Source: an uncultured Bacteroidales bacterium
GTDB taxonomy: Bacteria; Bacteroidota; Bacteroidia; Bacteroidales; Paludibacteraceae
Length of the DNA: 64,000 nt
Reading direction: 5' to 3'
Assembly: GCA_937885465.1 (NCBI GenBank)
Contig: CAKZZM010000154.1
Span: 7,760 to 71,759, forward strand
Below the pieces are notes generated by a model. The model did not search any database. It saw only the letters and a program-made list of their open reading frames with translations, and was not told the origin of the DNA. A program made the position numbers and the translations under genes. The stretch's first letter is position 1. The number at the start of each line of letters is the position of its first letter. Below, one piece after another: positions 8,325-63,606 of this stretch.

Positions 8325-8536
8325 GGTAGAGACGGTGTTCTTCACCGTCTCTCAATAGTGGAGAACGTCTCCGAACGTTTCTATTTCTCGTTTTTATAAA
8401 GTCGGCATTTAATGCCGACATTAGGAGTGGAGAACGTCTCCGAACGTTCAGACTTATTGAAACAGCGTTTAAACGGCATTTAAACGGCGTTGAAAAGTCC
8501 TTAAAAAGAGAGACGGTCGAAATGACCGTCTCTACC
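8325..8536. repeat. mosaic RepB(8325-8355) - RepA(8358) - RepD(8384-8419) - RepA(8427) - RepB(8508-8536)
   Basis: All units read directly. The B-to-A junction TCTCTCAATAGTGGAGAAC is the same as at four other loci. Confidence 0.95.
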
Positions 8537-10813: not shown

Positions 10814-10925
10814 AGTTGAAAGTTGAAAGTTGAAAGGTGAAAGTGCGGGCAGAGCCATAAAGTGGAAAGTCCGGCAAGTCCGGAAAGTCCGGAAAGTGCG
10901 GAGAGCCCGGAGAGTCCGGAAAGCC
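10814..10925. repeat. RepG heptamer/nonamer array with an embedded RepC
   Basis: AAGTTGAAAGTTGAAAGTTGAAAGGTGAAAGTGCGGGCAGAGCCATAAAGTGGAAAGTCCGGCAAGTCCGGAAAGTCCGGAAAGTGCGGAGAGCCCGGAGAGTCCGGAAAG. Confidence 0.9.
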
Positions 10926-11258: not shown

Positions 11259-11343
11259 CACTGCCCGACAATGTACCATGTACGAAAGTCCGGGCAGAAC
11301 CCTAAAGTTGAAAGCCGAAAGTTATACTACAAAGCAAATAGAT

Positions 11344-12555
11344 ATGACACATTTCACTTATTCAGAGATTCATCAGCAGCCCGAGATGTGGCGCAAAGAG
11401 TTGCAAGTCCTGCTAAGTGCGAAAGCAGAGATAAGTGCGTTCATGCGCAAGTACCTCACTCCCGACACGGACGTTGTGCTGACCGGTGCAGGCACATCGG
11501 CGTTCATTGGGGATGCCATCTGTCCGGTGATGCGCGGTATGTGGCGGAATGTGCGTTCGGTGCCGACAACCGACTTGATTACCCACTCGGAGTATCTGTT
11601 GGACAAGGAGCGTCCGTTGCTGCTGATTAGTTTTGCCCGTTCGGGCAACAGTCCGGAGAGCGTGGGTGCAGTGAACCTTGCGAACAAGTTGTGCAAGAAC
11701 GTGGCGCACATCTACATAACCTGCAACAAGAACGGAAAGCTGGCACAACAAGCAATAGAAAGTGCGGATAGAGCCCTAAAGTCTGAACGTTCGGACTTAT
11801 TAGTGGAGAACGTCTCTGAACGTTCTCAGACGTTCTCCACTATTAAGAAAGTCGAAAGTAACATATTGCTGTTGCTGTTGCCGGAGGAGACGGATGACAA
11901 GAGTTTGGCTATGACGAGCAGTTTCTCAACTATGCTGCTGACGTGCCTGATGCTCGGGCACATCGATACGCTTGAGCAGGATGCCGAGATGATAGAGAAA
12001 GCGGTGAAGAACGCCGAGTGCGTGATAGCCGATTATGAGGACAAGCTGCAAGAGATTGGCAGTCGCAAGTTCGAACGCGGTGTCTTCCTCGGCAGTGGCG
12101 CACTGAAAGGTATCGCCGAGGAATGCCACCTGAAGTTGCAGGAGCTGACGGATGGTGCAGTGGTGTGTAAGTTCGACTCGTTCTTAGGTTTCCGTCACGG
12201 ACCCAAAGCAGTGGTGAACGATAAGTCGATAGTCGTCTATCTGATGACGAACGAGGAGGATGTGATGCGTTACGAGCGCGACCTGATACGTCAGGTGGAC
12301 GGCAACAACAACCCCGTGGCGCAGGTGATTGTTATCTCGGGGCGTGACCCCGAGATGCCGGAGGTGAAAGCTGACCTTGTGGTGAAGATGCCCTACAGCA
12401 AGGCGGAGACGGATTTCTATGGTATAGTGTCGTACGTGTTAGTGGGGCAGCTGTTGGGGTACTACGCATCTCTCGCCCACAGCCTCAATCCCGACGCGCC
12501 ATCCGTCAGCGGGAACATACACCGAGTAGTGGAGGGAGTGACTATCTACGAGTAA
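11344..12555 (+). CDS. agaS: AgaS-type SIS-domain galactosamine-6-phosphate deaminase/isomerase carrying a 32-codon repeat insertion
   Basis: Collinear with E. coli AgaS as I recall it: LTGAGTSAFIGD, VPTTDL, PLLLISFARSGNSPESV, ITCN, AMTSSFS, GFRHGPK, PDAPSVSGNIHRVVEGV. I prefer the ATG at 11344 (MTHFTYSEIHQQPEMW) over the ORF-track start 11278, because the extra 22 codons are RepC/RepG sequence. Confidence 0.85.
   Translation: MTHFTYSEIHQQPEMWRKELQVLLSAKAEISAFMRKYLTPDTDVVLTGAGTSAFIGDAICPVMRGMWRNVRSVPTTDLITHSEYLLDKERPLLLISFARSGNSPESVGAVNLANKLCKNVAHIYITCNKNGKLAQQAIESADRALKSERSDLLVENVSERSQTFSTIKKVESNILLLLLPEETDDKSLAMTSSFSTMLLTCLMLGHIDTLEQDAEMIEKAVKNAECVIADYEDKLQEIGSRKFERGVFLGSGALKGIAEECHLKLQELTDGAVVCKFDSFLGFRHGPKAVVNDKSIVVYLMTNEEDVMRYERDLIRQVDGNNNPVAQVIVISGRDPEMPEVKADLVVKMPYSKAETDFYGIVSYVLVGQLLGYYASLAHSLNPDAPSVSGNIHRVVEGVTIYE
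11764..11859. repeat. 96-nt composite repeat (RepC-like, RepA, partial inverted RepA, RepG) in frame inside agaS
   Basis: Encodes [32 protein letters not shown]. It is bounded by the direct hexamer GAAAGT (11758-11763 and 11854-11859), exactly 96 nt apart. Confidence 0.85.
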
Positions 12556-12638: not shown

Positions 12639-13868
12639 ATGGCTAAAACAGAAAACATCCTCCGCGTGATGGAGGAACTGAAAGAAAAAACAGGTGTTCC
12701 GCGCACCCTTTTCGCTGCGTGTCCTAACTCACTTGCAGTAATCAAGGCATCGTTCCGTGCTGCCAAGCGTAATAACTCACCCATCTATTTCGCCACGACG
12801 CTTAACCAAGTGGATTGCGACGGCGGCTACACCGGCATGACGCAGGCCGAGTTCACTAAGATACTCGCCCGTGAGGCAGCGGCAGTACACTATACCGGTC
12901 CGTATGTTGTGGCTATCGACCACGGCGGACCGTGGCTGAAAGATAAGCAGTCGATTGAGCGTTGGAATACCGAGCGTGCCATGCAAGGCGTGAAAGAGAG
13001 TTATGAGGCTGCTATTCTTGCCGGCTATGACCTCATCCATGTTGACCCGACAGTGGATATCTTCCTGCCTAAAGGACAAATAATTGATATTCATGTTGTT
13101 GTCAAGCGTACCGTCGAACTGATTAAGCACGCCGAAGACTTCCGCAAAGCGCATAACTTACCACCTATCTCTTACGAGGTGGGAACGGAAGAGGTGCACG
13201 GCGGATTGGCCGACGACAAGACCTTCGATACTTTCTTGACAGGCTTGAAGGCAGGTTTGCACGAGGTTGGACTCGATGATATATGGCCGTGCTTTATTGT
13301 GGGGAAAGTTGGTACTGACCTGCATACCACTTTCTTCGATGCCGATGTGGCACGAAAACTGACGGCTAAGGTTAGACCTTACGGCAGTTATATCAAGGGG
13401 CACTATTCCGATGATGTGGATAATCCCGAAGATTATCCTAAGGCAGGTATGGGAGCCGCCAATGTAGGACCTGAATTCACTATGAATGAGTATGATGCTC
13501 TCGCTGAACTCGAAGAGGAAGAGAAGAAGTTGTTTGCCGAAGGTAAAGTGGCGCAACTGAGCAATATGACACAAGTCCTATGGAAATTAGTGCACGAGAG
13601 TAACCGATGGAAGAAATGGCTACACGGGGACGAGGTCGGCAAAGACCTGAGCGAGTGCTCGCCAGAACGACAACTATGGCTCGTGCAGACAGGCTGCCGA
13701 TATATATGGCAGAAGCCGGAAGCACTCGTCGCCCGTCAGATGCTCTACGATAATCTTAACCACCTCGGCATAAATGCCGAAGAGGTCGTGCTGATGCGCA
13801 TAGAGCATAATATGGATAAGTATTATAATGCGTTCAATATAGTTAATCTGAATGATTATTTGAAATAG
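12639..13868 (+). CDS. GatZ/KbaZ-family protein (tagatose-bisphosphate aldolase accessory subunit / tagatose-6-phosphate 4-epimerase family)
   Basis: 409 aa. The N-terminal block ACPNSLAVIKASFRAAKRNNSPIYFATTLNQVDCDGGYTGMTQAEF parallels the GatZ block ...[21 protein letters not shown]. Confidence 0.8.
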   Translation: MAKTENILRVMEELKEKTGVPRTLFAACPNSLAVIKASFRAAKRNNSPIYFATTLNQVDCDGGYTGMTQAEFTKILAREAAAVHYTGPYVVAIDHGGPWLKDKQSIERWNTERAMQGVKESYEAAILAGYDLIHVDPTVDIFLPKGQIIDIHVVVKRTVELIKHAEDFRKAHNLPPISYEVGTEEVHGGLADDKTFDTFLTGLKAGLHEVGLDDIWPCFIVGKVGTDLHTTFFDADVARKLTAKVRPYGSYIKGHYSDDVDNPEDYPKAGMGAANVGPEFTMNEYDALAELEEEEKKLFAEGKVAQLSNMTQVLWKLVHESNRWKKWLHGDEVGKDLSECSPERQLWLVQTGCRYIWQKPEALVARQMLYDNLNHLGINAEEVVLMRIEHNMDKYYNAFNIVNLNDYLK

Positions 13869-14020
13869 TCCGGAGGGTCCGGAGATTCCGGAAAGTCCGA
13901 AAAGTCCGGAGATTCCGGAAAGTCCGGAAAGTCCGGAAAGTCCGAAAAGTCCGGAAAGTCCGAAGATTCCGGAAAGTCCGAAGATTCCGGAAAGTCCGAA
14001 CGCTCGGAGGCGTTCTCCAC
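13869..14020. repeat. 15 tandem 9-nt units (TCCGGAAAG and variants, 13869-14003) running into an inverted RepA (13998-14020)
   Basis: Units counted one by one. The array starts at the base after the gatZ-like stop codon and ends 10 nt before the esterase ATG. Confidence 0.95.
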
Positions 14021-14029
14021 TATTCTGAT

Positions 14030-15430
14030 ATGAAGAAACCTGCGTATATATTATTTGCGATGTTGGCGGTGATGCTGTGTGCTTGCGGCGGTTGCAAAGG
14101 TCCTGTATCACAGGACGAGCCGCAGCAGGAGCAGCCGGTAACGGAACAAGTTGACCTGAGTCTGATCAAGCAATCCGTACCCGTAACCGATGACTGGGTT
14201 TGGAGCGGCAAGCCGGACATAACGATTCATATCGAGAATGGTAATGCGGTAGCCGTGAAAGTGGGCGTGTCGGTTCGCTACGCGAAGGACAATAAGGAAA
14301 AGGTGGAAACCGTGACTGACAGCGTAGAGGTGCCTGCCAACGGAGCGATAGACTACAAGGCGACTACGACTACGATGTTGAATCCGGGAGTGTATCGCGC
14401 CGGTTGCTACGTGAATAATAAGGTCGCACGGAACTTCAATTTTGCTATTGATCCGTTCAGTATCAAGTCAGAACCGGATAAGCAGCCGGATTTCGATGAG
14501 TTTTGGCAGAATGCCAAGGAGCAGTTGGCAGGTGTGGAAATGAACGCCACGCTGACTGAGTTGCCGGAAAAGAGCAGTACGATACGTAAGGTTTATTTAG
14601 TGGAGATGTACTCCGTGCCTGATGATCCTTCGGGTGAGCCGGTGAAGATCCGCGGTTACTACTGCGAGCCGCAGGACGGGCAGAAGCACCCTGTGATTAT
14701 GCACTACTACGGCTACGACACGCAGGGCAGTACGGCCAAGTGCGAGTGTCCGAGCGGCGGTTCGTCGAAGTACGCGGAGTTCTACCTGTCGCATCGCGGG
14801 CAGTATCTGAACAACCGTCCCGCCTCGACGGGTAACCCGGGTGTGACAGAGGATTGCGTTAGTTACTATGGCGACTGGTTCTCGTACAACTTCGGCAACC
14901 GAGACACGTGGTATTACCGCGGCGCGTATATGGATGTGGTGCAGTCGGTACGGTTCATGGCAACGCGTGAGACGAGCGACATGACGAAGCTGTTCGGCGA
15001 AGGGTCGAGTCAGGGCGGTGCGCTGACCTACGCTGCTGCCGCGTTGAGCGATTATCCGTTCTCGGCTATCGCCTGCAATGTGGCTTTCCTCGGCGATTTT
15101 GCGGATGCGATGGACGGCATAGGCGGCTTGGCGATGGAGCTGACTAAGGGGGCACGCGGTTCGATGAGCAATGAAGAGGTGCTCAAGTTCCTGAGTTACT
15201 TCGACACGAAGAACCTCGCTACTCATATATCATGCGCAGTGTTGGCAAGTAGCGGATTGCAGGATGATGTGTGCCCGCCAAGAACGAATATTGTGCCGTT
15301 CAATAACATCGCCGTGGCAGAGGCGGACAAGGAGTACGTGTTCGGTCCTGAGATGGGACACGACTACCCTAAAAACTGGAATAGTAAGATGTGGGAGTTG
15401 TTTAATAAGTTAAATCAGAAATACGAATAA
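14030..15430 (+). CDS. CE7/AXE1-like acetyl esterase lipoprotein
   Basis: Lipoprotein signal MKKPAYILFAMLAVMLCACGGC. Nucleophile elbow GEGSSQGGAL (G-x-S-x-G). Overall alpha/beta-hydrolase layout of acetyl xylan esterase / cephalosporin-C deacetylase family members. Confidence 0.75.
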   Translation: MKKPAYILFAMLAVMLCACGGCKGPVSQDEPQQEQPVTEQVDLSLIKQSVPVTDDWVWSGKPDITIHIENGNAVAVKVGVSVRYAKDNKEKVETVTDSVEVPANGAIDYKATTTTMLNPGVYRAGCYVNNKVARNFNFAIDPFSIKSEPDKQPDFDEFWQNAKEQLAGVEMNATLTELPEKSSTIRKVYLVEMYSVPDDPSGEPVKIRGYYCEPQDGQKHPVIMHYYGYDTQGSTAKCECPSGGSSKYAEFYLSHRGQYLNNRPASTGNPGVTEDCVSYYGDWFSYNFGNRDTWYYRGAYMDVVQSVRFMATRETSDMTKLFGEGSSQGGALTYAAAALSDYPFSAIACNVAFLGDFADAMDGIGGLAMELTKGARGSMSNEEVLKFLSYFDTKNLATHISCAVLASSGLQDDVCPPRTNIVPFNNIAVAEADKEYVFGPEMGHDYPKNWNSKMWELFNKLNQKYE

Positions 15431-16509: not shown

Positions 16510-19218
16510 ATGAAATATATGATGCACATACTGTTGATTGTTGCAGCCATGGCAACGGAGGTGTCAGGGGCGTCGTGGTATGTGCGGACTGATGGTTTGG
16601 ACGGCAATGACGGCAAGAGTTGGGAGACGGCGCAGTCAACGATACAGTTGGGTATTGACAACTGTCGCGTGGGCGATACCTTATACATAGCCGAGGGCGT
16701 GTATCATGAGGGCATTGTGTTGAAAGACGGCATCGCCATCATCGGCGGTTGTGCGGCAGGTGAGTACGGCACCCGCAAATATCCAACGTTCGATAGTGGA
16801 GAACGTCTCCGAACGTTCTCAGACGTTCTCCACTCAGGCGGCAGAACTATCTTGGATGGTACGGGGTTAGGCACACGGCTTATCAGTTGCGAGCAAGACT
16901 GCCATCGTCCGACCTTGGTGCAGGACCTTATATTGCAAAATGCGCGTCATAGTCAGCGTGGCGGTGGCGCATGGCTACGTGGCAAGGTGACGATGCGACG
17001 ATGTGTAGTGCGCGGTTGCAGCGGTACGTTGTGCGGCGGCGTGCTGATTAAAGGTGACCTGCCCGAATCGTCTGCCCTTGGTGCCCGATTAGAAGACTGC
17101 CTTGTGCATAACTGCACGGCTACCGGTCATGAGTGGCCGGATGCCGGCGGTGTGGCGAACTTCGACGGCACACTGGTTCATTGCACGATAGCGAACAACT
17201 ACGGCGACCGCTATGGCGGCATACACAGCGAGAGTTCGGTGTATGACTGCACGATGTGGGGCAATAGGAACGAATACGGTTTTGTAGATCCGACGAATTA
17301 CGTGTCGGACGAGAGTGAGTCCGGCATGAGCCGTGCTGACGAGGGGTTCGAACAGCAGTTTTTCGTTTATCCGTGGTTGAGTGAGCAGAATGAGGCAACA
17401 GCCGGTCCGCATTTCCGTGACCCCGCCACATTTGCAGGAGTGCCGACGAATAAGGCAGAGGAAGATATAATGCAGGCGGCAGACTATAGTATAGGTGAGC
17501 CTGCGCATCGCATAGAGAAAATGCCGCCTGCCGTTCCCCGTGCCGATAATAGAAATAGAAAAACTATCTCGTCCGAGAATTTAGAATATACAGTTCCGTC
17601 ATATATGTCTTTTTTGGTGGATAGTACTGCGACACTTGTGAGTAAGGAAGCACCTTATTGTATTGCTGCGCAGATCAATGGAGACCCGCGCAAACGTATG
17701 GCGTTCTGCTGGTTTACAAATGAAGGTGTTACGCGGGGAGAGGTGCAGTTGTTAGCGAAGAAAGATGCTACGGTAGCAGATTTTGAGACGAGTTTTTCAG
17801 TGGAGAATGTCTCCGAACGTTCACAAGTGGAGAACGTCTCCGAACGTCTGGCGGTAGAGACGGTGTTTTCCACCGTCTCTCAAATAGTGGAGAACGCCTC
17901 CGAACGTTCACAAGTGGAGAACGCCTCCGTAGCGCAAACGGTACGTAGCGTAAGCACTTCGTACTTGGTACCTGCCTCTCCTACTACAACTCCGCCTTTG
18001 CACTATGCTATATCTTCGTCAGGCATACTGAATAAGGCAAATATCAGCAAGAATACGGCATTCCGCTATGTCAGTCATAAGGCACTTGCCGACGATCTGC
18101 AACCCAGTACCGACTATTCGTGGCGATGCGGATATGAAGGACATTTTTCGGAAATTTTCCATTTCCGTACTGCTGACAACCGACAAAAAGATTTTTCGTT
18201 TGTCTATATGACGGATAGTCATATTCACAATCAGGAGTATATCGATGCAACAAGGCAGTGTGCGGAAGCGGTAGCGAGAAATGAGAGAGATGCGCGATTT
18301 TGCGTCTTCCCTGGTGATTTCGTAGATACCGGTACGGAGAACAACAGTGAGTGGGAGTGGGAGAGATGGTTCGAAGAAGCAATGAAACCTGTCCTTCGTC
18401 AGATGCCGCTTGTGCCGACCGATGGCAACCACGACGATTCACCACTGCTGAACTATACGTATCACTTCAATACTGATACGACGTTCAACATGACGACGCA
18501 GGTGCGTCCGCAGTTTGCGGGCATCAACTACAGCTTCACGTACGGCGATATGCAGTTGATCGCCTTCTCCGAGCAGGATTTTTGGCGTGGCGAGTACGAT
18601 TATTCCGCTCTTACCTCCGAGTATCTCGAGCGCGATTTGGGCGGTTGGATACATCGGCAGGTGGAAAAGGAGAAAAATGTGAAGTGGAGAGTCGGCTTAG
18701 TGCATAAGAATCTCTTCTCGGGTTCGGATCATCAGCGTGATAAGGAAACGCCACTCTTGCGTGCTACTCTTCTGCCGGTGATGAGAGATTGTCATATCGA
18801 CCTTTTATTGCAGGGACACGACCACACTTACGAAGTGATAGGACCCGTTGATCCGGATACTAAGAAACCTATTCTGTCTGCTATCTCGAATCAAGAGACG
18901 GTACCTGTTGATGCGGTCAGGAATATAACCGGCAAGAAAGACGGCACATACGATGTCAGCAGCGGAACGCTTTATTTTATAGGCGCGACTTGTGGCGCGA
19001 AGAGATATACGCCGCTCAAGCGCGAAGAGATGGACGCGAGCAAGCATATTCATCAGGTGGATAATTACTTTGACCTCTTTACCGGAATGTTCGGTCAACC
19101 CGGAGCACCTTCTTACACGAGAGTGACGGTGAAAAAAGATTACCTGTTGCTTGAATCGTTCAATGTTCTGCCGAATGGCAAGACGGAGCTGTTCAACACC
19201 CTGAAGATCGTTAAATAA
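16510..19218 (+). CDS. secreted beta-helix + purple-acid-phosphatase-like metallophosphoesterase, paralogue 1 (two in-frame repeat insertions)
   Basis: Signal peptide, then a right-handed beta-helix type N-terminus (SWYVRTDGLDGNDGKSWETAQSTIQ). PAP-N-like domain, then the metallophosphoesterase motifs MTDSH, PGDF, DGNHD, VHKNLF, QGHDH. Confidence 0.8.
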   Translation: MKYMMHILLIVAAMATEVSGASWYVRTDGLDGNDGKSWETAQSTIQLGIDNCRVGDTLYIAEGVYHEGIVLKDGIAIIGGCAAGEYGTRKYPTFDSGERLRTFSDVLHSGGRTILDGTGLGTRLISCEQDCHRPTLVQDLILQNARHSQRGGGAWLRGKVTMRRCVVRGCSGTLCGGVLIKGDLPESSALGARLEDCLVHNCTATGHEWPDAGGVANFDGTLVHCTIANNYGDRYGGIHSESSVYDCTMWGNRNEYGFVDPTNYVSDESESGMSRADEGFEQQFFVYPWLSEQNEATAGPHFRDPATFAGVPTNKAEEDIMQAADYSIGEPAHRIEKMPPAVPRADNRNRKTISSENLEYTVPSYMSFLVDSTATLVSKEAPYCIAAQINGDPRKRMAFCWFTNEGVTRGEVQLLAKKDATVADFETSFSVENVSERSQVENVSERLAVETVFSTVSQIVENASERSQVENASVAQTVRSVSTSYLVPASPTTTPPLHYAISSSGILNKANISKNTAFRYVSHKALADDLQPSTDYSWRCGYEGHFSEIFHFRTADNRQKDFSFVYMTDSHIHNQEYIDATRQCAEAVARNERDARFCVFPGDFVDTGTENNSEWEWERWFEEAMKPVLRQMPLVPTDGNHDDSPLLNYTYHFNTDTTFNMTTQVRPQFAGINYSFTYGDMQLIAFSEQDFWRGEYDYSALTSEYLERDLGGWIHRQVEKEKNVKWRVGLVHKNLFSGSDHQRDKETPLLRATLLPVMRDCHIDLLLQGHDHTYEVIGPVDPDTKKPILSAISNQETVPVDAVRNITGKKDGTYDVSSGTLYFIGATCGAKRYTPLKREEMDASKHIHQVDNYFDLFTGMFGQPGAPSYTRVTVKKDYLLLESFNVLPNGKTELFNTLKIVK
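16796..16833 (+). repeat. 38-nt full palindromic RepA in frame in paralogue 1
   Basis: GTGGAGAACGTCTCCGAACGTTCTCAGACGTTCTCCAC is translated as [13 protein letters not shown]. It is absent at the aligned position of paralogue 3 (…MYETIIDGTDIG…). Confidence 0.9.
17800..17972 (+). repeat. about 174-nt composite block RepA-RepA-RepB-RepA-RepA(truncated)-RepE in frame in paralogue 1
   Basis: RepA at 17800, 17827, 17887 and 17914; RepB at 17852-17883; RepE-like CGTAGCGTAAGCACTTCGTACTTGGTAC. Translated as [58 protein letters not shown]. Confidence 0.9.
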
Positions 19219-19373
19219 AGTACCAAGTGATAAAGTACCAAGTGACGAAGTACCAAGTACCGCTTACGCTAAGGAGACGTTCTCCACTGCACTTATATCT
19301 CTCGTCTTTATAAAGTCGGCATTTAATGCCGACCAAACGCTAAAAGTCAAGTGGAGAACGTCTCCGAACGTTC
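19219..19373. repeat. mosaic RepE - partial inverted RepA - RepD (19295-19333) - RepA (19351-19373)
   Basis: Read directly between paralogues 1 and 2. Confidence 0.9.
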
Positions 19374-19415: not shown

Positions 19416-21131
19416 ATGAAAAGAATCTATTACATTCAATTGATTGGCATGGTTGCCTTGTTTGCAGCATGCAAGCATGACCCTGTTGTTGAGCCGGAAG
19501 AGCCTCAGCAGCAGGACACAACTGAGCAGTATGTGCCGAAGGCGGAATGGGAGTTGGCTGACTCGCTATATACGCCGGCTGACTACACTGTGCCGAGTCA
19601 TACGATGCTCAAGATTGCCATCAGCGCTTGTGCCGACAATCCGAGCGAGGAAAACCTGGCAGTGATGCGCCAAAAGATCGAGGAGTTGGTGCCCAAGACT
19701 GAGCCTTACTGCATGGTTGCTACCATCAACGGCGACCCGAAGAGCAGGATGGGGTTTTGTTGGATGACCAATGACAGTGTTTTCGATGGCGTGGTGCAAC
19801 TTGTTGCCAAAGAGAATGCTACAGAAGCGGACTTTGAGTCAGGCGTGATAGAAATACCTGCTACGACCAAACGAACCAAAGCCATTACCTATGGTGGCAT
19901 TTGCTCCTATATTGTCCGTGCTTCAGGCATTCCGAAAAATGAGAAATATCGTTATATCAGCCACAAGGCAATAGCAGAGAACCTGACTCCCGGTTGTGCT
20001 TATTCGTGGCGAGTAGGCTACGAAGGCCATTGGAGTAAGATAGCCCAATTCCGTACTGAAGATGCAGAGCAAGGTGAATATTCGTTTATCTATATGACTG
20101 ACAGCCATATTATGAATGCAGAATATATCAGTAAGGCACGCCGTTGTGCCCTTGCCGCAGCCAAAACTGTACCTGAAGCACGTTTCTGTGTATTTCCCGG
20201 CGATTTTGTTGAAGATGGTGAACAGGTTAATAGCGAATGGGAGTGGGAGAGATGGTTTGAGGAAGCAATGAAACCTGTTATTATGCAAATGCCTATTGTT
20301 CCTACTGATGGTAACCACGATCCCAGTCCCAATCTTAATTATACGCACCATTTCAATACTGACAATGCTTTTTACAATAGTTGTTTTATCCCGCAGTACG
20401 AAGGTGTCGTTTACGATTTTGTATATGGAGACGCATTGTTTCTTGTCTTTTCCATGCAGGATTATTGGCGTGTCCAATATAGTTATGCTGACCCGCCCTC
20501 ATCAATCTATCTAAATAAGATTAGTGATTGGTTCATCAGTCGTACAACAGCCAATCCTGACACTAAGTACCGTATCTCTTTGGCACATTTCAATCTGTTC
20601 TCAGGGTCAGATCATTCTATAGACAACGATCCTCCGCTCTTCCGTGCATGTATGTTGCCAACGATGAAGCTTTGTGAGGTTGATTTAGCGTTGCAGGGGC
20701 ATGATCACACCTACGAGGTTATTGGTCCGGTTAATCCGGATGATTGTACGCCGATACTGGACGCTATCTCTGACCGTGAGGAAGTGCCTGTTGATAAAAA
20801 TATGAACGCAACGGGTTACAAAGGCGGCACTTTCTGCACCGATGACGGTACGCTCTATTTTATCGGTGCCACTTGCGGGGCAAAAAAATACTATCCTCAC
20901 AGCCGTGAGCGGATGGAGGCTGATTATAATAGCGGCAAGCACAATGTGCCGAACTACTTTGACCTGTTCACGGGTATGTTCGGTCAGCCGGAGAAACCGA
21001 GTTTCACGAAGATCACGGTGAAAGATGATTGCATTGAGTTTAATTCTTATACTGCAGACAACGATGAGGGCAATGTGACGCTGTTCAACACCATGCGCGT
21101 TGTCCGCACTAAACCTCATAGCGTGCCATAA
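19416..21131 (+). CDS. purple-acid-phosphatase-like metallophosphoesterase lipoprotein, paralogue 2 (no beta-helix module)
   Basis: Lipoprotein signal LFAACKHD. Same PAP-N + metallophos architecture and motifs (MTDSH, PGDF, DGNHD, AHFNLF, QGHDH). Contains the NSEWEWERWFEEAMKPV block identical to paralogue 1. Confidence 0.85.
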   Translation: MKRIYYIQLIGMVALFAACKHDPVVEPEEPQQQDTTEQYVPKAEWELADSLYTPADYTVPSHTMLKIAISACADNPSEENLAVMRQKIEELVPKTEPYCMVATINGDPKSRMGFCWMTNDSVFDGVVQLVAKENATEADFESGVIEIPATTKRTKAITYGGICSYIVRASGIPKNEKYRYISHKAIAENLTPGCAYSWRVGYEGHWSKIAQFRTEDAEQGEYSFIYMTDSHIMNAEYISKARRCALAAAKTVPEARFCVFPGDFVEDGEQVNSEWEWERWFEEAMKPVIMQMPIVPTDGNHDPSPNLNYTHHFNTDNAFYNSCFIPQYEGVVYDFVYGDALFLVFSMQDYWRVQYSYADPPSSIYLNKISDWFISRTTANPDTKYRISLAHFNLFSGSDHSIDNDPPLFRACMLPTMKLCEVDLALQGHDHTYEVIGPVNPDDCTPILDAISDREEVPVDKNMNATGYKGGTFCTDDGTLYFIGATCGAKKYYPHSRERMEADYNSGKHNVPNYFDLFTGMFGQPEKPSFTKITVKDDCIEFNSYTADNDEGNVTLFNTMRVVRTKPHSVP

Positions 21132-21213: not shown

Positions 21214-24200
21214 ATGAAAAAACTATTCTTTCTTTTGACGCTGTGCACAGCGGTGCTGTGTGCTTCTGCGAGCAATAAGTATGTGCGCCCCGACGGCGAT
21301 GATTCGCTCGATGGCAAATCATGGGCTAACGCCTTTGCTACTATCCAAACGGCAGTATGGGGCGTACCGGCAGGTGACACCGTTTTTATCGCTGAGGGTA
21401 CTTATAATCAGCGATTTTCCGTCAGTGATGGTCAGACTATCCTCGGTGGCTATAACGCCCAGACGGGGGAGCGCGACATCGAGATGTACGAAACGATAAT
21501 CGATGGTACTGATATAGGTCAGTATCTGATAGTTAAGTATGATGGTCCCCCTACCAATCATATTTTGATAGAGGGTCTTACTCTGCAGAATGCTCAGCAT
21601 GATCAGTGGGGCGGCGGAGCCATCTATCTACGCGATAATATGACGGTTCGTCAGTGCCATATACGCAACTGCCGTGGTGGAACGGCGGGCGCCATCTTCA
21701 TCGACCATAATGATGCCGCGACCGTGCAGGCGGTGGTTAGCGGCTGCATAGTGGAACTATGCTCAGCCAACGGCTGCGCCGCTATCTACAATAACAACGG
21801 CATAGTGGAGAACTGCATAGTACGCGGTTGTAGCGGCAAAGCGGGGGCTATACGCAACGAGACGGCCGCCGGCATAGTACGCAACTGCGTAGTGCATAAC
21901 AACACCCTCACCGGCACTTGGCCTAATAGCGCCATCTATAACAAAGGTTTAGTCTATAATTGCACCGTAGCCAATAACCACGGCGACCAATATGCGGGCA
22001 TTCATTCTGAAGGTATGGTGTATAATTCCGTCTTTTGGGGGAATACAAACCCGACCGATTTCAGCGATCCTGCTAACTATATCAATGGTAGCAACTCCAC
22101 GCACAACGTGGCAGACGAAGGTTTCGGCAAGAGTTCTGCATATCTGAGTCTGACTCTCTCTGCCAATAATACCGATGTGGCGGGTCCTAATTTCCGCAAC
22201 CCGACGAATTTCGCAGGTGTGCCTGCCGATGATGCGCAGATCACCAGTATGCAGAATGCCGATTTCTCGCTCACCGATGCTTCTGTGGCATTGCTTGATA
22301 AGGCTGAGGCGGCATCTGCTACCACCACCGACATCACCGGTGTCGCTCGTCCCAAAGGAACGGGTTACGACATAGGTGCATACGAGTACGATCCCGATGC
22401 CGTTACTGTTGCCGTAACAGGTGTTAGTATTCAGCAAGATACCCTCAGAGTGATTGTCGGTCAGACAGCCACCTTCACCGTTATTATAACACCTGCCGAT
22501 GCTAATAATAAGCGGGTAAGTTGGGAATGTCAGGATGCTACTGTGGCAACAATACAGAATGGCATAGTAACAGGTCTGAGAGAAGATACCACTTTGGTCA
22601 GTGTGACCACGCAGGATGGAGCTTTCACTGCCACAGCAGTGTTAGTAGTTCTGCCCGTTCCGCCCGTTTATTATCCGGTAGAGGTCTTGGCTGCAGATAC
22701 TCTGTATAAGCAGGCTGACTATACAGTGCCGTCTTATATCCCCTTCCTCATCGCTAAGGAAGCCGCAAGGATAGATAGTGCTACTGCTGAGGATGTTACT
22801 GCTATTGCCGATAAGATAGCAGAGATGAATATTGCTATCGGTAATCTTGTGAACAAAGAAGAACCATATAATATGGTTGCCAATATCAACGGTGATCCGT
22901 CAATGCGTATGGCGTTCTGCTGGTTCACTAACGAAGGTATAACGGATGGAGTGGTGCAACTTCTTGCAATGGAAAATGCTACGGCAGACGACTTCGAGAC
23001 GAATAACGGCGTTATAACTATTACCGCAGAGGCGACCACGACTCCTGCGCTCAATTATGCCGTTGCCACTTCGGGTATAGCAAAGGCGGCGGGCATTGCC
23101 GGTAATACCAAATTCCGCTATGTCAGCCACAAAGCACTTGCCGATAATCTGACAGCTGGCACAACCTATTCGTGGCGAGTAGGTTATGAAGGGCATTATT
23201 CCGATATCGCCCGTTTCCGCACAAAAGATGCAGTGCAGGGCGAATATTCTTTCCTCTATATGTCGGATAGTCATATTCAGGATGCAGAGTATGTAAATAA
23301 TGCTAAATGGTGCGCTATGGCAGCAGTGCAGACCGTTCCGGAAGCTCGTTTCTGCCTCTTCCCCGGCGACTTTGTCGAGACAGGCACCAAGTCGAACTCC
23401 GAGTGGGAGTGGGAGAGATGGTTCGAGGAATCGATACGACCGGTGATAATGCAGATGCCTATCGTGCCAACTGATGGTAATCACGATGATAGCGAGAATC
23501 TTAATTACGACTATCACTTCAATACCGACTGGGGATTCTACTCAATGGTGCAGTCGCACAAACCGCAGTTCCACGGCATAACCTATTCGTTTGTCTATGG
23601 AGATGTCCTCTTTCTTGTTTATTCGTTGCAAGATTGGTGGCGAGCAAGCGGCAGTAGTGCCGAAGGCAGGTTGTCATCGTATCTCTCAAATGATGTGAAA
23701 AACTGGTTTAATGAGCAGATTGCGGCGCATCCGAACACCAAATATCGCGTGACACTTGCTCATAAAAATATCTTCTCCGGTTCAGGACATTCAACCGATG
23801 ATGAGATACCGATGTTCCGTGATATTATGTTGCCTATTTTGAAAGATTGTCAGATCGACCTTGCTATTCAGGGGCATGACCACTGCTATGAGGTTATAGG
23901 TCCGGTTAATCCTGATACCCGCACATTAGTGGAAGGGGCTGTGGAAGATGTAGAGACGGTTGCCGTCAATACCAATACGAATATGACCGGCAAGCAAGGC
24001 GGCACTTTCACCACCGATGACGGTACGCTGTATTTCATTGGAGCAACTTGCGGGCGTAAGCGTTACTACCCGTATAGCCGTGCTAAGATGGAGGAGAAAT
24101 ATACTACCGACCCGTCTGTTCTTTATGATGATAACCACCACGATGTAGAGAATTATTTTGACCTCTTCACAGGCATGTTTGGTCAACCGGGTGCTCCTTC

Positions 24201-24450
24201 ATTCACTAAGTTTACTGTTAAGAGCGACTGCCTTGAGGTTAATTCCTATACAGCCGACTCGAACGGCAATGCTACTCTTATCAATACAATGCGAGTGAAG
24301 CGTAACACTGCCCACACCGTTCCCTCTGGCTACGAAGACGTGCAGCAGCAGCGCACCATCCGCGACGGCGAGAAGTTCATCCGCGGTGGTCAAATGCTGA
24401 TTCGCAAGGATGGCAAGACCTACAATGTGCTGGGTGAGGTGGTAGAGTAA
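21214..24450 (+). CDS. secreted beta-helix + Big_2 + purple-acid-phosphatase-like metallophosphoesterase with T9SS-like tail, paralogue 3
   Basis: I prefer the ATG at 21214 (MKKLFFLLTLCTAVLCASA signal peptide) over the ORF-track start 21100, which reads through repeat sequence. Ig-like Big_2 segment VTGVSIQQDTLRVIVGQTATFTV...VSWECQD. Motifs MSDSH, PGDF, DGNHD, AHKNIF, QGHDH. Tail FIRGGQMLIRKDGKTYNVLGEVVE. Confidence 0.85.
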   Translation: MKKLFFLLTLCTAVLCASASNKYVRPDGDDSLDGKSWANAFATIQTAVWGVPAGDTVFIAEGTYNQRFSVSDGQTILGGYNAQTGERDIEMYETIIDGTDIGQYLIVKYDGPPTNHILIEGLTLQNAQHDQWGGGAIYLRDNMTVRQCHIRNCRGGTAGAIFIDHNDAATVQAVVSGCIVELCSANGCAAIYNNNGIVENCIVRGCSGKAGAIRNETAAGIVRNCVVHNNTLTGTWPNSAIYNKGLVYNCTVANNHGDQYAGIHSEGMVYNSVFWGNTNPTDFSDPANYINGSNSTHNVADEGFGKSSAYLSLTLSANNTDVAGPNFRNPTNFAGVPADDAQITSMQNADFSLTDASVALLDKAEAASATTTDITGVARPKGTGYDIGAYEYDPDAVTVAVTGVSIQQDTLRVIVGQTATFTVIITPADANNKRVSWECQDATVATIQNGIVTGLREDTTLVSVTTQDGAFTATAVLVVLPVPPVYYPVEVLAADTLYKQADYTVPSYIPFLIAKEAARIDSATAEDVTAIADKIAEMNIAIGNLVNKEEPYNMVANINGDPSMRMAFCWFTNEGITDGVVQLLAMENATADDFETNNGVITITAEATTTPALNYAVATSGIAKAAGIAGNTKFRYVSHKALADNLTAGTTYSWRVGYEGHYSDIARFRTKDAVQGEYSFLYMSDSHIQDAEYVNNAKWCAMAAVQTVPEARFCLFPGDFVETGTKSNSEWEWERWFEESIRPVIMQMPIVPTDGNHDDSENLNYDYHFNTDWGFYSMVQSHKPQFHGITYSFVYGDVLFLVYSLQDWWRASGSSAEGRLSSYLSNDVKNWFNEQIAAHPNTKYRVTLAHKNIFSGSGHSTDDEIPMFRDIMLPILKDCQIDLAIQGHDHCYEVIGPVNPDTRTLVEGAVEDVETVAVNTNTNMTGKQGGTFTTDDGTLYFIGATCGRKRYYPYSRAKMEEKYTTDPSVLYDDNHHDVENYFDLFTGMFGQPGAPSFTKFTVKSDCLEVNSYTADSNGNATLINTMRVKRNTAHTVPSGYEDVQQQRTIRDGEKFIRGGQMLIRKDGKTYNVLGEVVE

Positions 24451-28043: not shown

Positions 28044-28225
28044 GTAGAGAACGCCTCCGAGCGTTCAGACTTAGTGGAGAACGCCTCCGAGCGTTCAGAC
28101 TTTTGACATCTGAACGTTCGGAGACGTTATCCACTGCACTTACCTCTCGTCTTTATAAAGTCGGCATTTAATGCCGACTAAAGTGTATATCTCTCGTCTT
28201 TATAAAGTCGGCATTTAATGCCGAC
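28044..28225. repeat. RepA (28044) - 61-nt long palindromic RepA pair (28074-28134) - RepD x2 (28139-28178, 28186-28225)
   Basis: Read directly between the convergent 26718 and DeoR genes. Confidence 0.95.
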
Positions 28226-28233
28226 TTTAAGTG

Positions 28234-29010
28234 TTATACCATTTTCAGCTCAATGCCGGCTGCTTTGAGGCGCGAGGGCAGACCGGTTGGTATGGCTCGG
28301 TCGGTGATGATGCAATGTATCTCAGAGGCGTTTGCTATATGGACGAAACTGCGTTTGTTGAATTTCGATGAGTCGAACACGGCGATTACCTTCGCAGCCT
28401 GTTGTATCATCTGTTGGTTGAGTAGGGCTTCTTCTAACGAAGGGGTAGAAACGCCGTTTTCTAACGAGAACGAATCTACTCCCAAAAATAACTTGTATCC
28501 GCTGAAGTTCCGCAGTACGGATATGGCGAGCGGACCGACGGTGGAATGACTGTTGACACGCACATTGCCGCCTATGAGAATAACATCGAAACGCTTATAT
28601 CGCATCAGCTCGGTGGCGATGTTCATAGCGTTGGTAATGATATGCAGGTTATAGAAATTGTCTAAGTGTCGTGCTATCTCAAGTGTGGTGGTGCCTGAGT
28701 CGAGCATGATGAAATCACCCTCGTTGATCATCTTTGTCGCTTCTTCCCCTATCCTCTCTTTTTCCTTAAAGTTAAATAACTTTTTCTTTCCGATAGAAGT
28801 GTCCTCATTCGGGTTTTCTATCGGTCGGCGCATCGCGCCTCCTCGTGTTCGAATGAGAAGGTTGCGACTTTGCAATATTGTGAGGTCCTTACGAATGGTA
28901 ACCTCTGATATGCCTGTTTCGCGACTCAGTTCTGTTACCAGAACCTCTTCTTTTTTCTCTAACTGCCGCAGGATAAGTGCCCTGCGTTCTTTTGCCGATG
29001 ATGCGTTCAT
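28234..29010 (-). CDS. DeoR family transcriptional regulator
   Basis: 258 aa. N-terminal wHTH (RRALILRQLEKKEEVLVTELSRETGISEVTIRKDLTILQ) and a C-terminal DeoR sugar-phosphate sensor domain (MLDSGTTTLEIA). Confidence 0.9.
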   Translation of the reverse strand: MNASSAKERRALILRQLEKKEEVLVTELSRETGISEVTIRKDLTILQSRNLLIRTRGGAMRRPIENPNEDTSIGKKKLFNFKEKERIGEEATKMINEGDFIMLDSGTTTLEIARHLDNFYNLHIITNAMNIATELMRYKRFDVILIGGNVRVNSHSTVGPLAISVLRNFSGYKLFLGVDSFSLENGVSTPSLEEALLNQQMIQQAAKVIAVFDSSKFNKRSFVHIANASEIHCIITDRAIPTGLPSRLKAAGIELKMV

Positions 29011-30543: not shown

Positions 30544-32496
30544 ATGAAAAAAGTCTTTTATCTATTATCTTTAACTGTTGCGGTCTTAAGTCTGACTGCG
30601 TGTCAGCCGAAGGCGGATAGTGGTGAACGCCTCCGAGCGTTCGACACCGAACGGCTGATCTGCGCGGAAGCGGATATGCAGGCGTTCCCGTATCAGCAGA
30701 AGGGCTTGCATGTGGTAAAGCAGCAGACGGTACGGAATGTTGACGGCGTGCCGGGATTGCAGGTGATCCAGACGCAGTTCATCAATATAGGCAAGCCTGT
30801 GATGGTCAGAGCCTACGAGCTATGCCGCACAGAAATTGAGCCGAAAGATACAGTTGTATGGTCGCTACAGCCGAGCAGCACGGCGGCACGTATGGACTGG
30901 GTGCTGCCCGTTACGCAGGGATTCAGCAAGCAGAACTACCTTGGCATGAACAACTCCGACTACGGTGGTGGCATACCTGTGGTTGACCTGTGGCAGCGTG
31001 ACGGCGGTGAGGCTATCGGGTTGTTTGAGCCGGTGCTGCGGATGATTTCAATGCCCGTGGAGTGGAAGCGCTATGATAACAAAGTGACGATGGCACTCCG
31101 TTATGATCTGCCGGAATCGGTAGAACTGGCAACTGGTGACACGTTGCGTTGCTATAAGGCGTTCCGCTACAAGCATACGGGTGATTACTTTACCGCCCTG
31201 CGTACGTTCTCGGAGTATATGCAGGCGAACGAAGGGGTGGTGATGAGGCCATCTGAGCCGGAAGCGTTTGAACCCGTTTGGTGTGCGTGGGGATATGGGC
31301 GTCCGTTCAAAATGGATATGGTATTGGGTACGTTGGACAAGGTTGCCGAATTAGGTTTCACTTGGGTGGATATAGACGATGGCTACCAGATTGCGGAGGG
31401 CGACTGGAATACGAACGAGTATTTCCCTGGCGGTGACAAAGATATGCGTCATATAACGGACGAGGTTCACAGGCGCGGTATGAAAGCCAAACTATGGTGG
31501 GCACCATTGGCGGCTGACCCGGATACGAAGTTGGTGAAAGAGCATCCCGAATATCTGCTCAAGACCGAGGAATGGGCACACGAGTATATCACGTGGTGGG
31601 ACAGCTGGTATCTGTCGCCTGTTAATCCGGGTGTAGATGCCTATACGACTGACCTGCTGAAGATGTTTATCGACCGTTGGGGATTCGATGGCTTGAAGAT
31701 TGATGGTCAGCATCTGAACTGCTGTCTGCCCGACTATAACGAGACGTCAGGGCTGAATGACCCTTGGGAGGCGCCCGAGCAGATGCCGACATACTTTGGT
31801 AAGATATACGAGCAGACTCGTGCCATGAAGCCAGATGCTGTTATTCAGGTTTGTCCCTGCGGCTGCGCAGTGAACTATTGGCTGCTGCCGCAGATCAACC
31901 AAGCCGTGGCATCCGACCCGATGAGTTCGCGTCAGGTGCGAATGAAACGCAAGGCTTACGCAGCTATGGCACCGGATCTGGCATACTACGGCGACCATGT
32001 GGAACTGACGGATGGCGGCAATGATTTTGCTTCGCAGATAGGTACGGGTTCGGTTATCGGAACGAAGTTCACGTGGCCGAAGGACAACCCCGACTGGAAC
32101 GAAGGTCCGTTCCTGCTCACGCCGGAGAAAGAACAACTGCTCCGCAAGTGGATGAAGATTTACAAGGAAAATAACCTTGCCCGAGGCGAATACATGAACC
32201 TCTATACGTGGGGTTTCGACTATCCTGAGGCGCATGTGATAAGAGTTGAAAGTCCGGGCAGAGCCCTAAAGTCGAAAGTCGAAAGCGCAGGGGAGGCGAT
32301 GTACTATGCGTTCTATACCGATGATCAACCCTTCAGCGGTATAATAGAGTTACGCGGAATAGAGGCAGGCAAGACTTATACTGCCACAGAGTATGCAGCC
32401 GATGAACCGCGTGAGTTCGAGGTGGACGGCAGCAATCCGAAGATAGAGGTGAACTTCGAGCGGAGTTATCTGCTGAAAGTAGTAGAAAAGTGGTGA
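30544..32496 (+). CDS. alpha-galactosidase-like glycoside hydrolase lipoprotein (clan GH-D, GH36/GH27-like) with two in-frame repeat insertions
   Basis: Lipobox LSLTAC. Catalytic-domain blocks WCAWGYG, FTWVDIDDGYQ, KAKLWWAPL, FDGLKIDGQH. Repeat-encoded SGERLRAF lies just after the lipobox, and VESPGRALKSKVES lies near the C-terminus. Confidence 0.78.
   Translation: MKKVFYLLSLTVAVLSLTACQPKADSGERLRAFDTERLICAEADMQAFPYQQKGLHVVKQQTVRNVDGVPGLQVIQTQFINIGKPVMVRAYELCRTEIEPKDTVVWSLQPSSTAARMDWVLPVTQGFSKQNYLGMNNSDYGGGIPVVDLWQRDGGEAIGLFEPVLRMISMPVEWKRYDNKVTMALRYDLPESVELATGDTLRCYKAFRYKHTGDYFTALRTFSEYMQANEGVVMRPSEPEAFEPVWCAWGYGRPFKMDMVLGTLDKVAELGFTWVDIDDGYQIAEGDWNTNEYFPGGDKDMRHITDEVHRRGMKAKLWWAPLAADPDTKLVKEHPEYLLKTEEWAHEYITWWDSWYLSPVNPGVDAYTTDLLKMFIDRWGFDGLKIDGQHLNCCLPDYNETSGLNDPWEAPEQMPTYFGKIYEQTRAMKPDAVIQVCPCGCAVNYWLLPQINQAVASDPMSSRQVRMKRKAYAAMAPDLAYYGDHVELTDGGNDFASQIGTGSVIGTKFTWPKDNPDWNEGPFLLTPEKEQLLRKWMKIYKENNLARGEYMNLYTWGFDYPEAHVIRVESPGRALKSKVESAGEAMYYAFYTDDQPFSGIIELRGIEAGKTYTATEYAADEPREFEVDGSNPKIEVNFERSYLLKVVEKW
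30620..30642 (+). repeat. RepA (GTGGTGAACGCCTCCGAGCGTTC) in frame, 5 codons after the lipoprotein Cys
   Basis: Translated as SGERLRAF. Confidence 0.9.
32245..32285 (+). repeat. RepG-RepC-RepG unit in frame in the alpha-galactosidase
   Basis: GTTGAAAGTCCGGGCAGAGCCCTAAAGTCGAAAGTCGAAAG is translated as VESPGRALKSKVES. Confidence 0.85.
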
Positions 32497-35624: not shown

Positions 35625-37376
35625 ATGAAAACGAAACTTATATCCGTCTTTATAAAGTCGGCATATAATGCCGACAAAAGTCTGAACGTTCTCAGACGTT
35701 CTCCACTAAGTCTGAACGTTCTCAGACGTTCTCCACTATATTTAACCGTGGCATTTGCTATTATGCTTGGTTTCCAGAGTTGCGATCTCGAATACTTCCC
35801 TACTGACGAGTTAAATTCGAGTGGTTTTTTAGCAGACGAATCCGGAGCACAATATGTGATTGACGGTTGTTACGCGATGCTCAAGGAGGAATATGCGTAC
35901 ATTGAGTATGCATCAAGTAATACTTATGTTCGTCATTATATGCAGATGGCAGAGTTTCCTGCGGACAATACCTGCTTATCAGGACGTACAACAGACCCTT
36001 TGTTCCAGGCAACATGCTATACTATGACAGACAATTTGAAGAATGTCGGCCTCTTTTGGTGGGTAGGATACAAAGTAATCTTTACGGCTAATACTATCAT
36101 TGAAAGCTATGCAGAGGGGAAATCCCAAGAGTGTGACCAACTACTTGGTGAGGCATATTTCCTACGCGCTATGTGTCACTTCCAATTAGCCACAATCTTC
36201 TCTAAGCCATATAGCCATGGTCGTGATAATCTTGGCATAGTGCTTCGTACAAGCACAAATACCGAAGAGACTCATCGTGCTACTGTTGGCGAGGTATATG
36301 ACCAGGTTGTAAAAGATTTGCAGAAGGCTGCAAGTCTGATGAACAAATCTCGTGGCAATGCAGGCTATGCTTCCAAGAACGCTGCGTTGGGGCTGCTTAG
36401 TCGAGTATATCTCTACATGGAGGAAAACCAAAAGGTGATTGACGTAATTGCCGAGATGGGCGACCCTATTGCTAATCTTGATCCTGACTACGCCACTTAT
36501 TTTGCCAATGCGCTGAAGAGCAAGGAGACCCTCTTCTGCGTAGCGCACACAACTCTTGAAGACCGCGGTCAAGCAAGCATCGGCAGCATGTACAACAACG
36601 ACCCGAATGGTAAAGGATGGGGAGAGGTGTATGCGAGTGATCCTCTACTTAATCTTTATGAACGTTATCCGGACGATATACGTTTAAGTTATATTAAACC
36701 GCAATATGCAGGTAGCAAGAATATGGTATATTTTTCGATACCTGATGCTACAGGATCAAGTGTTGACTTATGGGCTGATGTAAAAGCAGATAGCGAGGGT
36801 AACTACTGCGAGATTGACGGCAACAAGTACCGCATCAATGATGAATTGGTAAATGGTGAATACACTGCGCATTACGTAACGTATGAAGGTAAGAAATGTA
36901 GTGCGCGTCTGACAAAGACGATGACGCAGCGCAATACGTTTCCAAACTATTTTGTAACCAAATTCGGCTATCAGGACGGCAAGCCGCAATTATCCTCGCC
37001 GGTATTCCTGCGTTGGGGTGAGGTTGTGCTTAATCGTGCTGAGGCTAACGCTAAACTGGGTAATGATGATGCCGCCCTTGCAGACGTTAATGCTATACGT
37101 AGGCGTGCCGGTATTCCCGCAGAAGGAGAGTTTGCTGCCGGCAAGATGCATGGCTACACGTCTGTTTTGGATGTCGTGCTTGACGAACGGCGCATGGAGT
37201 TGGCGTTTGAGGGACACCGAATGTTCGATGTATATCGCAACAAACGCAACATGGATCGCCAATTCGGCGGAGTACATCCGTGGGAGATTGTTAAATACGA
37301 TGATCCAAAGATTCAATATCCTATTCCCTATGGTGAGTGGTCTGTTAGCGGAATACAGCAGAACCCGGGATACTAA
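35625..37376 (+). CDS. SusD/RagB family nutrient-binding lipoprotein with a repeat insertion in the signal-peptide n-region
   Basis: Follows SusC by 52 nt. Lipobox MLGFQSCD. TPR-like body with a typical C-terminal region (LDERRMELAFEGHRMFD). ATG at 35625; the ORF-track start 35616 is a TTG. Confidence 0.9.
   Translation: MKTKLISVFIKSAYNADKSLNVLRRSPLSLNVLRRSPLYLTVAFAIMLGFQSCDLEYFPTDELNSSGFLADESGAQYVIDGCYAMLKEEYAYIEYASSNTYVRHYMQMAEFPADNTCLSGRTTDPLFQATCYTMTDNLKNVGLFWWVGYKVIFTANTIIESYAEGKSQECDQLLGEAYFLRAMCHFQLATIFSKPYSHGRDNLGIVLRTSTNTEETHRATVGEVYDQVVKDLQKAASLMNKSRGNAGYASKNAALGLLSRVYLYMEENQKVIDVIAEMGDPIANLDPDYATYFANALKSKETLFCVAHTTLEDRGQASIGSMYNNDPNGKGWGEVYASDPLLNLYERYPDDIRLSYIKPQYAGSKNMVYFSIPDATGSSVDLWADVKADSEGNYCEIDGNKYRINDELVNGEYTAHYVTYEGKKCSARLTKTMTQRNTFPNYFVTKFGYQDGKPQLSSPVFLRWGEVVLNRAEANAKLGNDDAALADVNAIRRRAGIPAEGEFAAGKMHGYTSVLDVVLDERRMELAFEGHRMFDVYRNKRNMDRQFGGVHPWEIVKYDDPKIQYPIPYGEWSVSGIQQNPGY
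35641..35736. repeat. RepD (35644-35675) + two inverted RepA copies (ending 35706 and 35736; period 30) in codons 6-38 of SusD
   Basis: Translated as SVFIKSAYNADKSLNVLRRSPLSLNVLRRSPL. Confidence 0.92.
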
Positions 37377-40955: not shown

Positions 40956-41047
40956 GTGGAAAACGCCTCCGAGCGTTCATATTTCTCGTCTTTATAAAGT
41001 CGGCATTGAATGCCGACATCCGGAGTGGAGAACGTCTCCGAACGTTC
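40956..41047. repeat. RepA (40956, C:G variant) - RepD (40979-41017) - RepA (41025-41047)
   Basis: Read directly. The same A-D-A order occurs at 8358-8449. Confidence 0.95.
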
Positions 41048-63496: not shown

Positions 63497-63568
63497 CAAA
63501 GTGGCATTATTGAAAATCAGTTTGTTGCAAAGAAAGTTCATTTTTTTTCAAAAAAAATCGGGTAAAAA

Positions 63569-63600: not shown

Positions 63601-63606
63601 CACTCG

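Follow-up and report, generated by a model that had tools for sequence, protein, structure and literature searches.

Dispersed palindromic repeats in frame within one of three tandem phosphatase-like genes of an uncultured Paludibacteraceae bacterium

The stretch of DNA analysed here, referred to as the window, comprises 64,000 nucleotides (nt) from an uncultured Bacteroidales bacterium of the family Paludibacteraceae (GenBank assembly GCA_937885465.1, contig CAKZZM010000154.1, positions 7,760 to 71,759 of the forward strand). Its nearest database proteins and loci come from rumen and bioreactor metagenome-assembled genomes of Paludibacteraceae. The window holds three tandem paralogous genes, the first of which carries within its open reading frame (ORF) a 58-codon block made of short repeats belonging to the dispersed families RepA, RepB and RepE. 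The three genes, with domains assigned by Pfam and insertions judged by alignment, are as follows.

16510-19218, + strand: Paralogue 1, 902 amino acids (aa) in the ORF list; database gene calls start at 16519 and give 899 aa.
19416-21131, + strand: Paralogue 2, no beta-helix domain; without the 58-codon block.
21214-24450, + strand: Paralogue 3, with beta-helix, Big_2 and phosphatase domains; without the block and without the second insertion of Paralogue 1 (listed below).

Paralogue 1 has a signal peptide, and its domains are a right-handed beta-helix, Pur_ac_phosph_N (similar to fibronectin type III, FN3) and a calcineurin-like metallophosphatase (Metallophos). Paralogues 2 and 3 are 50-53% identical to it, and the metallophosphatase motif residues D569, H571, D603, N640, H641, H732, H770 and H772 are invariant in the alignment of all three. 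Database matches to Paralogue 1 include one protein that is 100% identical (P0001) and one that differs by a single aa (P0121). The repeat-derived DNA of the block extends from 17799 to about 17975, and the parts of the two insertions in Paralogue 1 are as follows.

17797-17970, + strand: in-frame repeat block (SVENVSER...STSYLV), 174 nt or 58 codons.
17799-17825 and 17826-17852, + strand: RepA copies 1 and 2, with a 27-nt period and cores at 17802 and 17829.
17853-17885, + strand: RepB, a GTAG-tagged hairpin, GGTAG AGACGGTG TTTTC CACCGTCT CTCAAAT; the hairpin match covers 17856-17880.
17886-17912, + strand: RepA copy 3, with its core at 17889.
17913-17928, + strand: truncated RepA copy 4, a GCC variant.
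17929-17960, + strand: two degenerate RepE units (GTAGCGTAAGC...).
After the RepE units to about 17975, + strand: tail of GTACTTC/GTACTTG heptamers.
16794-16833, + strand: second in-frame insertion, a 40-nt palindromic RepA encoding 13 residues, with a partial RepA 3' half just before it.

An earlier reading of this DNA, made from the sequence only, had described the block as a 174-nt element at 17800-17972. Its sequence and peptide were exact, and its coordinates, which span 173 nt, were about 3 nt off. The order that it gave (RepA, RepA, RepB, RepA, truncated RepA, RepE) was borne out family by family, with RepE present as two copies and with the heptamer tail in addition. The palindromic RepA, given there as 38 nt at 16796-16833, is read here as 40 nt from 16794; its reported absence from Paralogue 3 holds.

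The units of the block are either identical to dispersed intergenic families or differ from them by 1-2 mismatches. The RepA core (GGAGAACGTCTCCGAACGT) has 60 matches in the window at up to 3 mismatches, about one per kb, where shuffled sequences give an expectation of 0; the RepB hairpin has 9 copies (0 expected) and RepE 9 matches (0.05 expected). Nearly all spacers of the window are patchworks of RepA arrays, RepB and RepC hairpins, RepE, heptamer arrays and 9-mer arrays. The comparison was extended to 884 kb, made up of the window and 96 loci retrieved with a RepA 24-mer, nearly all of them from the whole-genome shotgun set FLNU01. In these 884 kb the junction RepA-CTGGCGGT-RepB occurs 16 times and RepB-CAAAT-RepA 19 times. 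In one of these loci (L148), an intergenic spacer beside a tRNA-like sequence carries RepA, RepA, RepB and RepA in the same order as the block. The claim that the block has the architecture of an intergenic mosaic is supported by the make-up of the spacers and by the recurring order and junctions. Apart from a 221-nt segment described below, the RepA-rich FLNU01 loci have only repeats in common with the window, which leaves it unproven that they come from one species.

The families differ in their layout. In 52 of 58 RepB copies, a GTAG tag on exactly one side goes with an 8-bp stem, a T-rich 5-nt loop and a CTCAA tail. RepA comes in two forms, palindromic (40 nt) and half (24 nt), and its 5' context in 385 copies is TAGT in 70% and GTAGT in 18%. 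Unit sizes range from 24 to 40 nt, and tandem arrays have periods of 27, 28 or 30 nt. A further hairpin family, RepC (TCTCGTCTTTATAAAGTCGGCATTTAATGCCGAC), lies mostly between RepA copies as a 69-nt module and is found in the window at 28144-28234, 8400-8440, 19290-19330 and 40990-41025; a 47-nt unit at 28144-28190 is missing from one strain (L171). Arrays of the 9-mers AGTCCGGAA / GGAAAGTCC, of up to about 15 copies, occupy 13867-13998 and 10864-10923 and vary from strain to strain, by 36 nt and by 18 nt, respectively. With Rfam covariance models at gathering score, the sole match in the window was a tRNA at 52008-52081. Near the end of the window, a 221-nt segment (63502-63722) is 99% identical to positions 14332-14552 of locus L097, at the end of contig FLNU01002364.1, and the sequence to its left is unrelated. 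It may represent a larger repeat family, mark a rearrangement or result from chimeric joining where repeats cluster.

The block leaves the coding sequence of Paralogue 1 unbroken. Two of the six frames are open across it, one of them being the frame in use, and on the + strand one of the three is open; the RepA core contains a stop codon in none of the six frames. In the paralogue alignment, homology and reading frame pick up exactly past the block. One AlphaFold model, built on 30 orthologues, assigns a predicted local distance difference test (pLDDT) score below 50 to residues 433-481 and 87-110, which correspond to the two insertions, and has confident strands (411-415 and 484-493) on either side of these low-pLDDT loops. 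The RNA of the block folds modestly better than shuffled sequences (z = -2.1), its stable element being the RepB hairpin, and a scan of Paralogue 1 for terminators and promoters found nothing convincing within the block. Judging by the integrity of the ORF, the block is presumably translated and Paralogue 1 is presumably active.

The distribution of the block identifies its presence as the derived state. The three-paralogue alignment shows Paralogues 2 and 3 gapped over 53 columns at the block and gapped again at the palindromic RepA. Among the best 120 homologues of Paralogue 1, one is identical and the other 119, mostly about 60-70% identical overall, have neither the block nor the palindromic RepA. 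Orthologues of Paralogue 1 are present in many Paludibacteraceae species at 60-70% identity, compared with the 50-53% that separates it from Paralogues 2 and 3, and the loops of orthologues of Paralogues 1, 2 and 3 that could be recovered from 70 related-species loci contain neither insertion. Tandem paralogues are also found in several of these 70 loci; the duplication is therefore older than these species. RepA itself could not be found in the 916 kb of the 70 loci, by exact search or with up to 3 mismatches, and the family is therefore lineage-restricted. On this distribution the insertion is judged to be much younger than the duplication, as the sequence-only reading had proposed. Orthologues of Paralogues 2 and 3 carrying the block in relatives, which would have spoken for ancestral presence and later loss, were looked for and none was found.

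Other assemblies narrow this interval from the recent side. In ERZ922529, an independent bioreactor assembly that is about 99.3% identical to the window over the aligned 20 kb (gaps included), the whole block is spanned and identical. A SPAdes contig of ERZ842383 ends within the block at 17880 and has the left 82 nt of it on the correct gene flank, and a SPAdes contig of ERZ842392 starts within the block at 17847 and has the right 124 nt on the correct gene flank. Wherever it has been assembled in these three, the block is identical, and they differ from the window by single-nucleotide polymorphisms elsewhere. By sequence comparison, the insertion is accordingly placed later than the split from the nearest sequenced species and earlier than the divergence of the sampled strains.

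The site of the block has a history of its own in other species. The loop of the FN3 domain is hypervariable in their orthologues and often consists of in-frame short tandem repeats, such as (AAATCAC)x4 in L013, (CCGACGGTCAA)x3 in L005 and heptamers of the type AATTCAG/AAATCAG. The hypervariable loops lie at 7120-7251 in L013, 7111-7206 in L016, 7141-7248 in L005, 3737-3832 in L029, 1162-1269 in L006 and 7138-7257 in L047. These loops suggest that the FN3 domain tolerates or attracts simple-repeat sequence at this position in many lineages. The possibility that they are copies of repeats from their own genomes was tried and dropped. Their 10-11-mers hardly recur within the loci of about 14 kb, and a cross-species insertion hotspot therefore stays a mere observation of in-frame tandem repeats.

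The case of Paralogue 1 is not isolated. At least three further genes of the window contain in-frame mosaics.

11278-12555, + strand: AgaS-like SIS isomerase gene; mosaic at 11755-11856 including a 40-nt RepA palindrome; residues 160-193 are unmatched in PDB 3odp.
49249-50673, + strand: lpxB, with in-frame mosaics; a gap of about 40 aa relative to E. coli LpxB (5w8s).
43094-44776, - strand: U32 peptidase gene, with three in-frame repeat blocks at 43283-43375, 43660-43711 and 43901-44027.

In LpxB, repeat-derived peptides also lie near residue 177 and near the C-terminus; the latter region contains the peptide of a RepA-RepC-RepA array (WR.SENVHNSRLYNVGIKCRRLE). The U32 peptidase has no sequence relative in the PDB, and its Pfam alignment was used instead: one of its repeat blocks lengthens the DUF3656 match from 106 to 133 residues. 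The ORF of this peptidase (ATG at 44776) begins at position 36 of the Pfam profile, and the gene call in another strain is 659 aa; the gene probably extends upstream into 44777-45069, an apparent spacer.

On the larger scale of 884 kb, 74 of 560 RepA matches (13%) are found deep within 32 long ORFs, with 100 codons or more to either end. Of the six frames, these intragenic copies use every forward one and all but one of the reverse ones, VENVSERS being the commonest translation. Spacings between tandem RepA copies are a multiple of three in 29 of 30 cases inside long ORFs vs 82 of 178 outside (Fisher p = 3.7e-8). A size in multiples of three as an intrinsic property of the element was considered and rejected: only 53% of tandem spacings fit, and 28 nt is common. 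The multiple-of-three spacing inside ORFs is a selection filter for frame preservation. The earlier statement that intergenic-type repeats lie within coding sequence with the ORF unbroken stands, and its further step, the capture of a whole cassette, goes beyond these data if a single event is meant.

RepA copies are also found around the starts of two genes. In a SusD-like gene, the lipoprotein signal sequence is separated from the only ATG upstream of it by two copies (35625-35790, NVLRRSPL x2), and in a hypothetical protein at 41771 (41771-41870) RepA is found directly past the signal peptide. These copies may form part of signal-peptide n-regions or of mature N-termini.

Repeat modules are gained and lost between strains within genes. 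About 50 kb of the window was set against four further assemblies of this species, and all indels of at least 7 nt between strains lie within repeat arrays. The gene lpxB is normally essential. In the window it contains a 60-nt RepA-RepB module (50033-50092) that is absent from two other strains, and these two strains carry instead an extra 69-nt RepC+RepA module after 49779 (site 49762-49787). Both indels have lengths divisible by three and direct RepA repeats at their boundaries, the lpxB ORF is intact in all strains, and the strains that differ in these modules are about 99% identical. Near the 5' end of a melibiase-like gene (30544-32496), the tandem copy number of a RepA on the + strand (30618-30644) is 1, 2 or 3 depending on the strain, in steps of 27 nt. 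The called products in three strains are 650, 659 and 668 aa, and the RepA stretch (30544-30650) is either translated or upstream of the true start.

Taken as a whole, the block is probably lineage-specific short interspersed palindromic repeat DNA, resembling repetitive extragenic palindromic (REP) sequences and bacterial interspersed mosaic elements (BIMEs), that landed in a permissive loop and of which frame-preserving versions were kept. RepA would occasionally be seeded into a coding loop, here one within Paralogue 1's FN3-like N-terminal domain. Recombination, slippage or gene conversion, acting between one RepA copy and another, would then add or take away modules, as in the lpxB polymorphisms, and selection would retain only the versions that keep the reading frame. 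Since lpxB modules have been gained and lost between flanking RepA copies, the block is no less likely to have grown stepwise from a seeded RepA than to have arrived as a unit. The insertion, presumably neutral, would survive because the RepA core is free of stops, the frame is kept, the block forms a disordered excursion on a tolerant loop and the enzyme is intact.

Several observations weigh against an insertion of this kind. No strain without the block was found, and a metagenome scan for an empty-site allele, which used the sequence left of the block, gave no match; the insertion is deduced from phylogenetic distribution rather than from polymorphism at the site. The loop was apparently not simply interrupted, as about 6 native residues seem to have been replaced: TSYLV at the 3' end of the block stands where close orthologues have the strand NILTV, which suggests the replacement of a few native residues. 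No target-site duplication is visible at either insertion of Paralogue 1 or beside the lpxB modules that vary between strains. A domain of a transposase or of a REP-associated tyrosine transposase (RAYT) was not detected by Pfam in the 35 window proteins scanned, a set that leaves out a few ORFs. Likewise, a RAYT/Y1 transposase was not found among 2315 ORFs in 820 kb of FLNU01 loci, in a weak search (phmmer with two seed sequences, and a motif scan); the genome is only partly available. Is the repeat system then active without a transposase, or with a novel mobilising enzyme? Such a system, in which RepA copies would serve as homology anchors for ectopic recombination between spacers and coding loops, is a rather unlikely proposal. 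If true, it would be a natural loop-insertion engine, undescribed in Bacteroidota, that remodels protein loops in frame, even in lpxB, and repeatedly hits permissive loops, that of the present phosphatase family among them.

Other explanations of the block have to be weighed against the capture of dispersed repeats. An ancestral low-complexity linker lost from Paralogues 2 and 3 and from other species, or slippage within the local coding sequence, would agree with the hypervariability of the same loop in orthologues and with its in-frame short tandem repeats in several species. The block, however, is in none of the 119 homologues or the related-species loci, and its units and junctions match dispersed intergenic families, which is beyond the reach of local slippage; this origin is extremely improbable. 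The metagenome-assembled source, and the breaks of two SPAdes assemblies inside the block, could raise the suspicion that an assembler stitched a repeat into the gene. The identical block spanned in the independent ERZ922529, together with the correct flanks joined by the broken contigs, disposes of such an artefact, and the exact resumption of frame and homology argues in the same direction; its probability is negligible.

Paralogue 1 might instead be a decaying pseudogene whose frame is open by luck. A single frame-preserving insertion has about a 1 in 3 chance of an open frame, and two redundant paralogues adjoin the gene. But the 902-codon ORF is intact despite two independent frame-preserving insertions, the metallophosphatase motif residues are all conserved, strains differ by one aa, and frame preservation is systematic genome-wide, all of which makes decay very unlikely. 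An adaptive insertion, either diversifying an exposed loop of a secreted enzyme (surface variation or evasion) or regulating the mRNA through the RepB hairpin, is improbable. The signal peptide, the hypervariability of the loop across species and the rapid strain-to-strain change in repeat copy number in other genes are in keeping with the former, and the fold of the block (z = -2.1) with its stable RepB hairpin is in keeping with the latter. Yet the block is invariant in all four sampled assemblies and lacks a convincing terminator, and RepA is strongly depleted from coding sequence, with 13% of its matches deep inside long ORFs. Furthermore, the same repeats occur in the cytoplasmic housekeeping enzymes LpxB, AgaS-like isomerase and U32 peptidase, where surface diversification would make no sense.

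Repeat DNA inside genes has been described in other bacteria. According to the account in PMC10969869, Rickettsia palindromic elements (RPEs) are selfish palindromes found between genes and in frame inside many functional genes (Ogata et al. 2000, 2002). RPEs are lineage-specific, and the peptide segments that they encode are judged compatible with the protein fold. The repeats described here resemble RPEs in being palindromic and lineage-specific, and both intergenic and in frame in many unrelated, intact genes. They differ in size and host: an RPE is a single unit of about 100-150 bp, and its host an obligate intracellular alphaproteobacterium, whereas the present units are 24-40 nt long and form tandem arrays and multi-family mosaics in a free-living anaerobic Bacteroidota host; no sequence relationship is expected.

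An architectural parallel concerns RepB. GTAG/CGTC-tagged REPs are palindromes of 20-40 bp that are mostly extragenic and lie downstream of ORFs (Di Nocera et al. 2013; PMC3733652). A minority is intragenic, as singles, dimers or clusters, the clusters encoding 43-82 aa, in e.g. Opitutus terrae, Thauera and R. conorii; Bacteroidetes are listed for CGTC repeats only (PMC3733652). The GTAG tag, 8-bp stem and 5-nt loop of RepB match the REP architecture (PMC3733652). As with REPs, the palindromes here are short, numerous and mostly extragenic. The dominant RepA, in contrast, has mostly a TAGT 5' context (GTAG in 18%) and another architecture, and no RAYT gene was found in the loci searched. In E. 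coli, BIMEs are assemblies of REP-type palindromes and other short motifs whose order recurs; they lie in intergenic spacers and are essentially extragenic. The mosaics described here share the recurrent order of several motifs and differ in lying in frame inside genes. Transposable elements of the miniature inverted-repeat type (MITEs), among them ERIC, pneumococcal BOX and cyanobacterial MITEs, are small, non-autonomous repeats and can be intragenic, with in-frame ORF fusions possible (PMC10969869; PMC3184786). MITEs have terminal inverted repeats and target-site duplications, whereas no duplication was seen at the present junctions and the lpxB indels are bounded by the RepA copies themselves. 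In full-text literature searches, such repeats turned up in no account of Paludibacteraceae, and nothing specific to Bacteroidales was found. The phenomenon is thus of a kind already known from Rickettsia RPEs and intragenic REPs, and is apparently unreported in Bacteroidota.

The repeats have practical consequences. Inside genes they break metagenome contigs, which leads to truncated gene calls, and they inflate or shift predicted N-termini and gene lengths. The insertions in the phosphatase, LpxB, the AgaS-like isomerase and the U32 peptidase form a natural data set of tolerated loop insertions, and the polymorphic in-frame modules can be used for studying repeat spread and as markers for strain typing. 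To conclude, repeat DNA inside working genes has so far been a Rickettsia-centred curiosity; it is found also in this free-living bacterium of the Bacteroidota, from gut or bioreactor, where it is dense and turning over.

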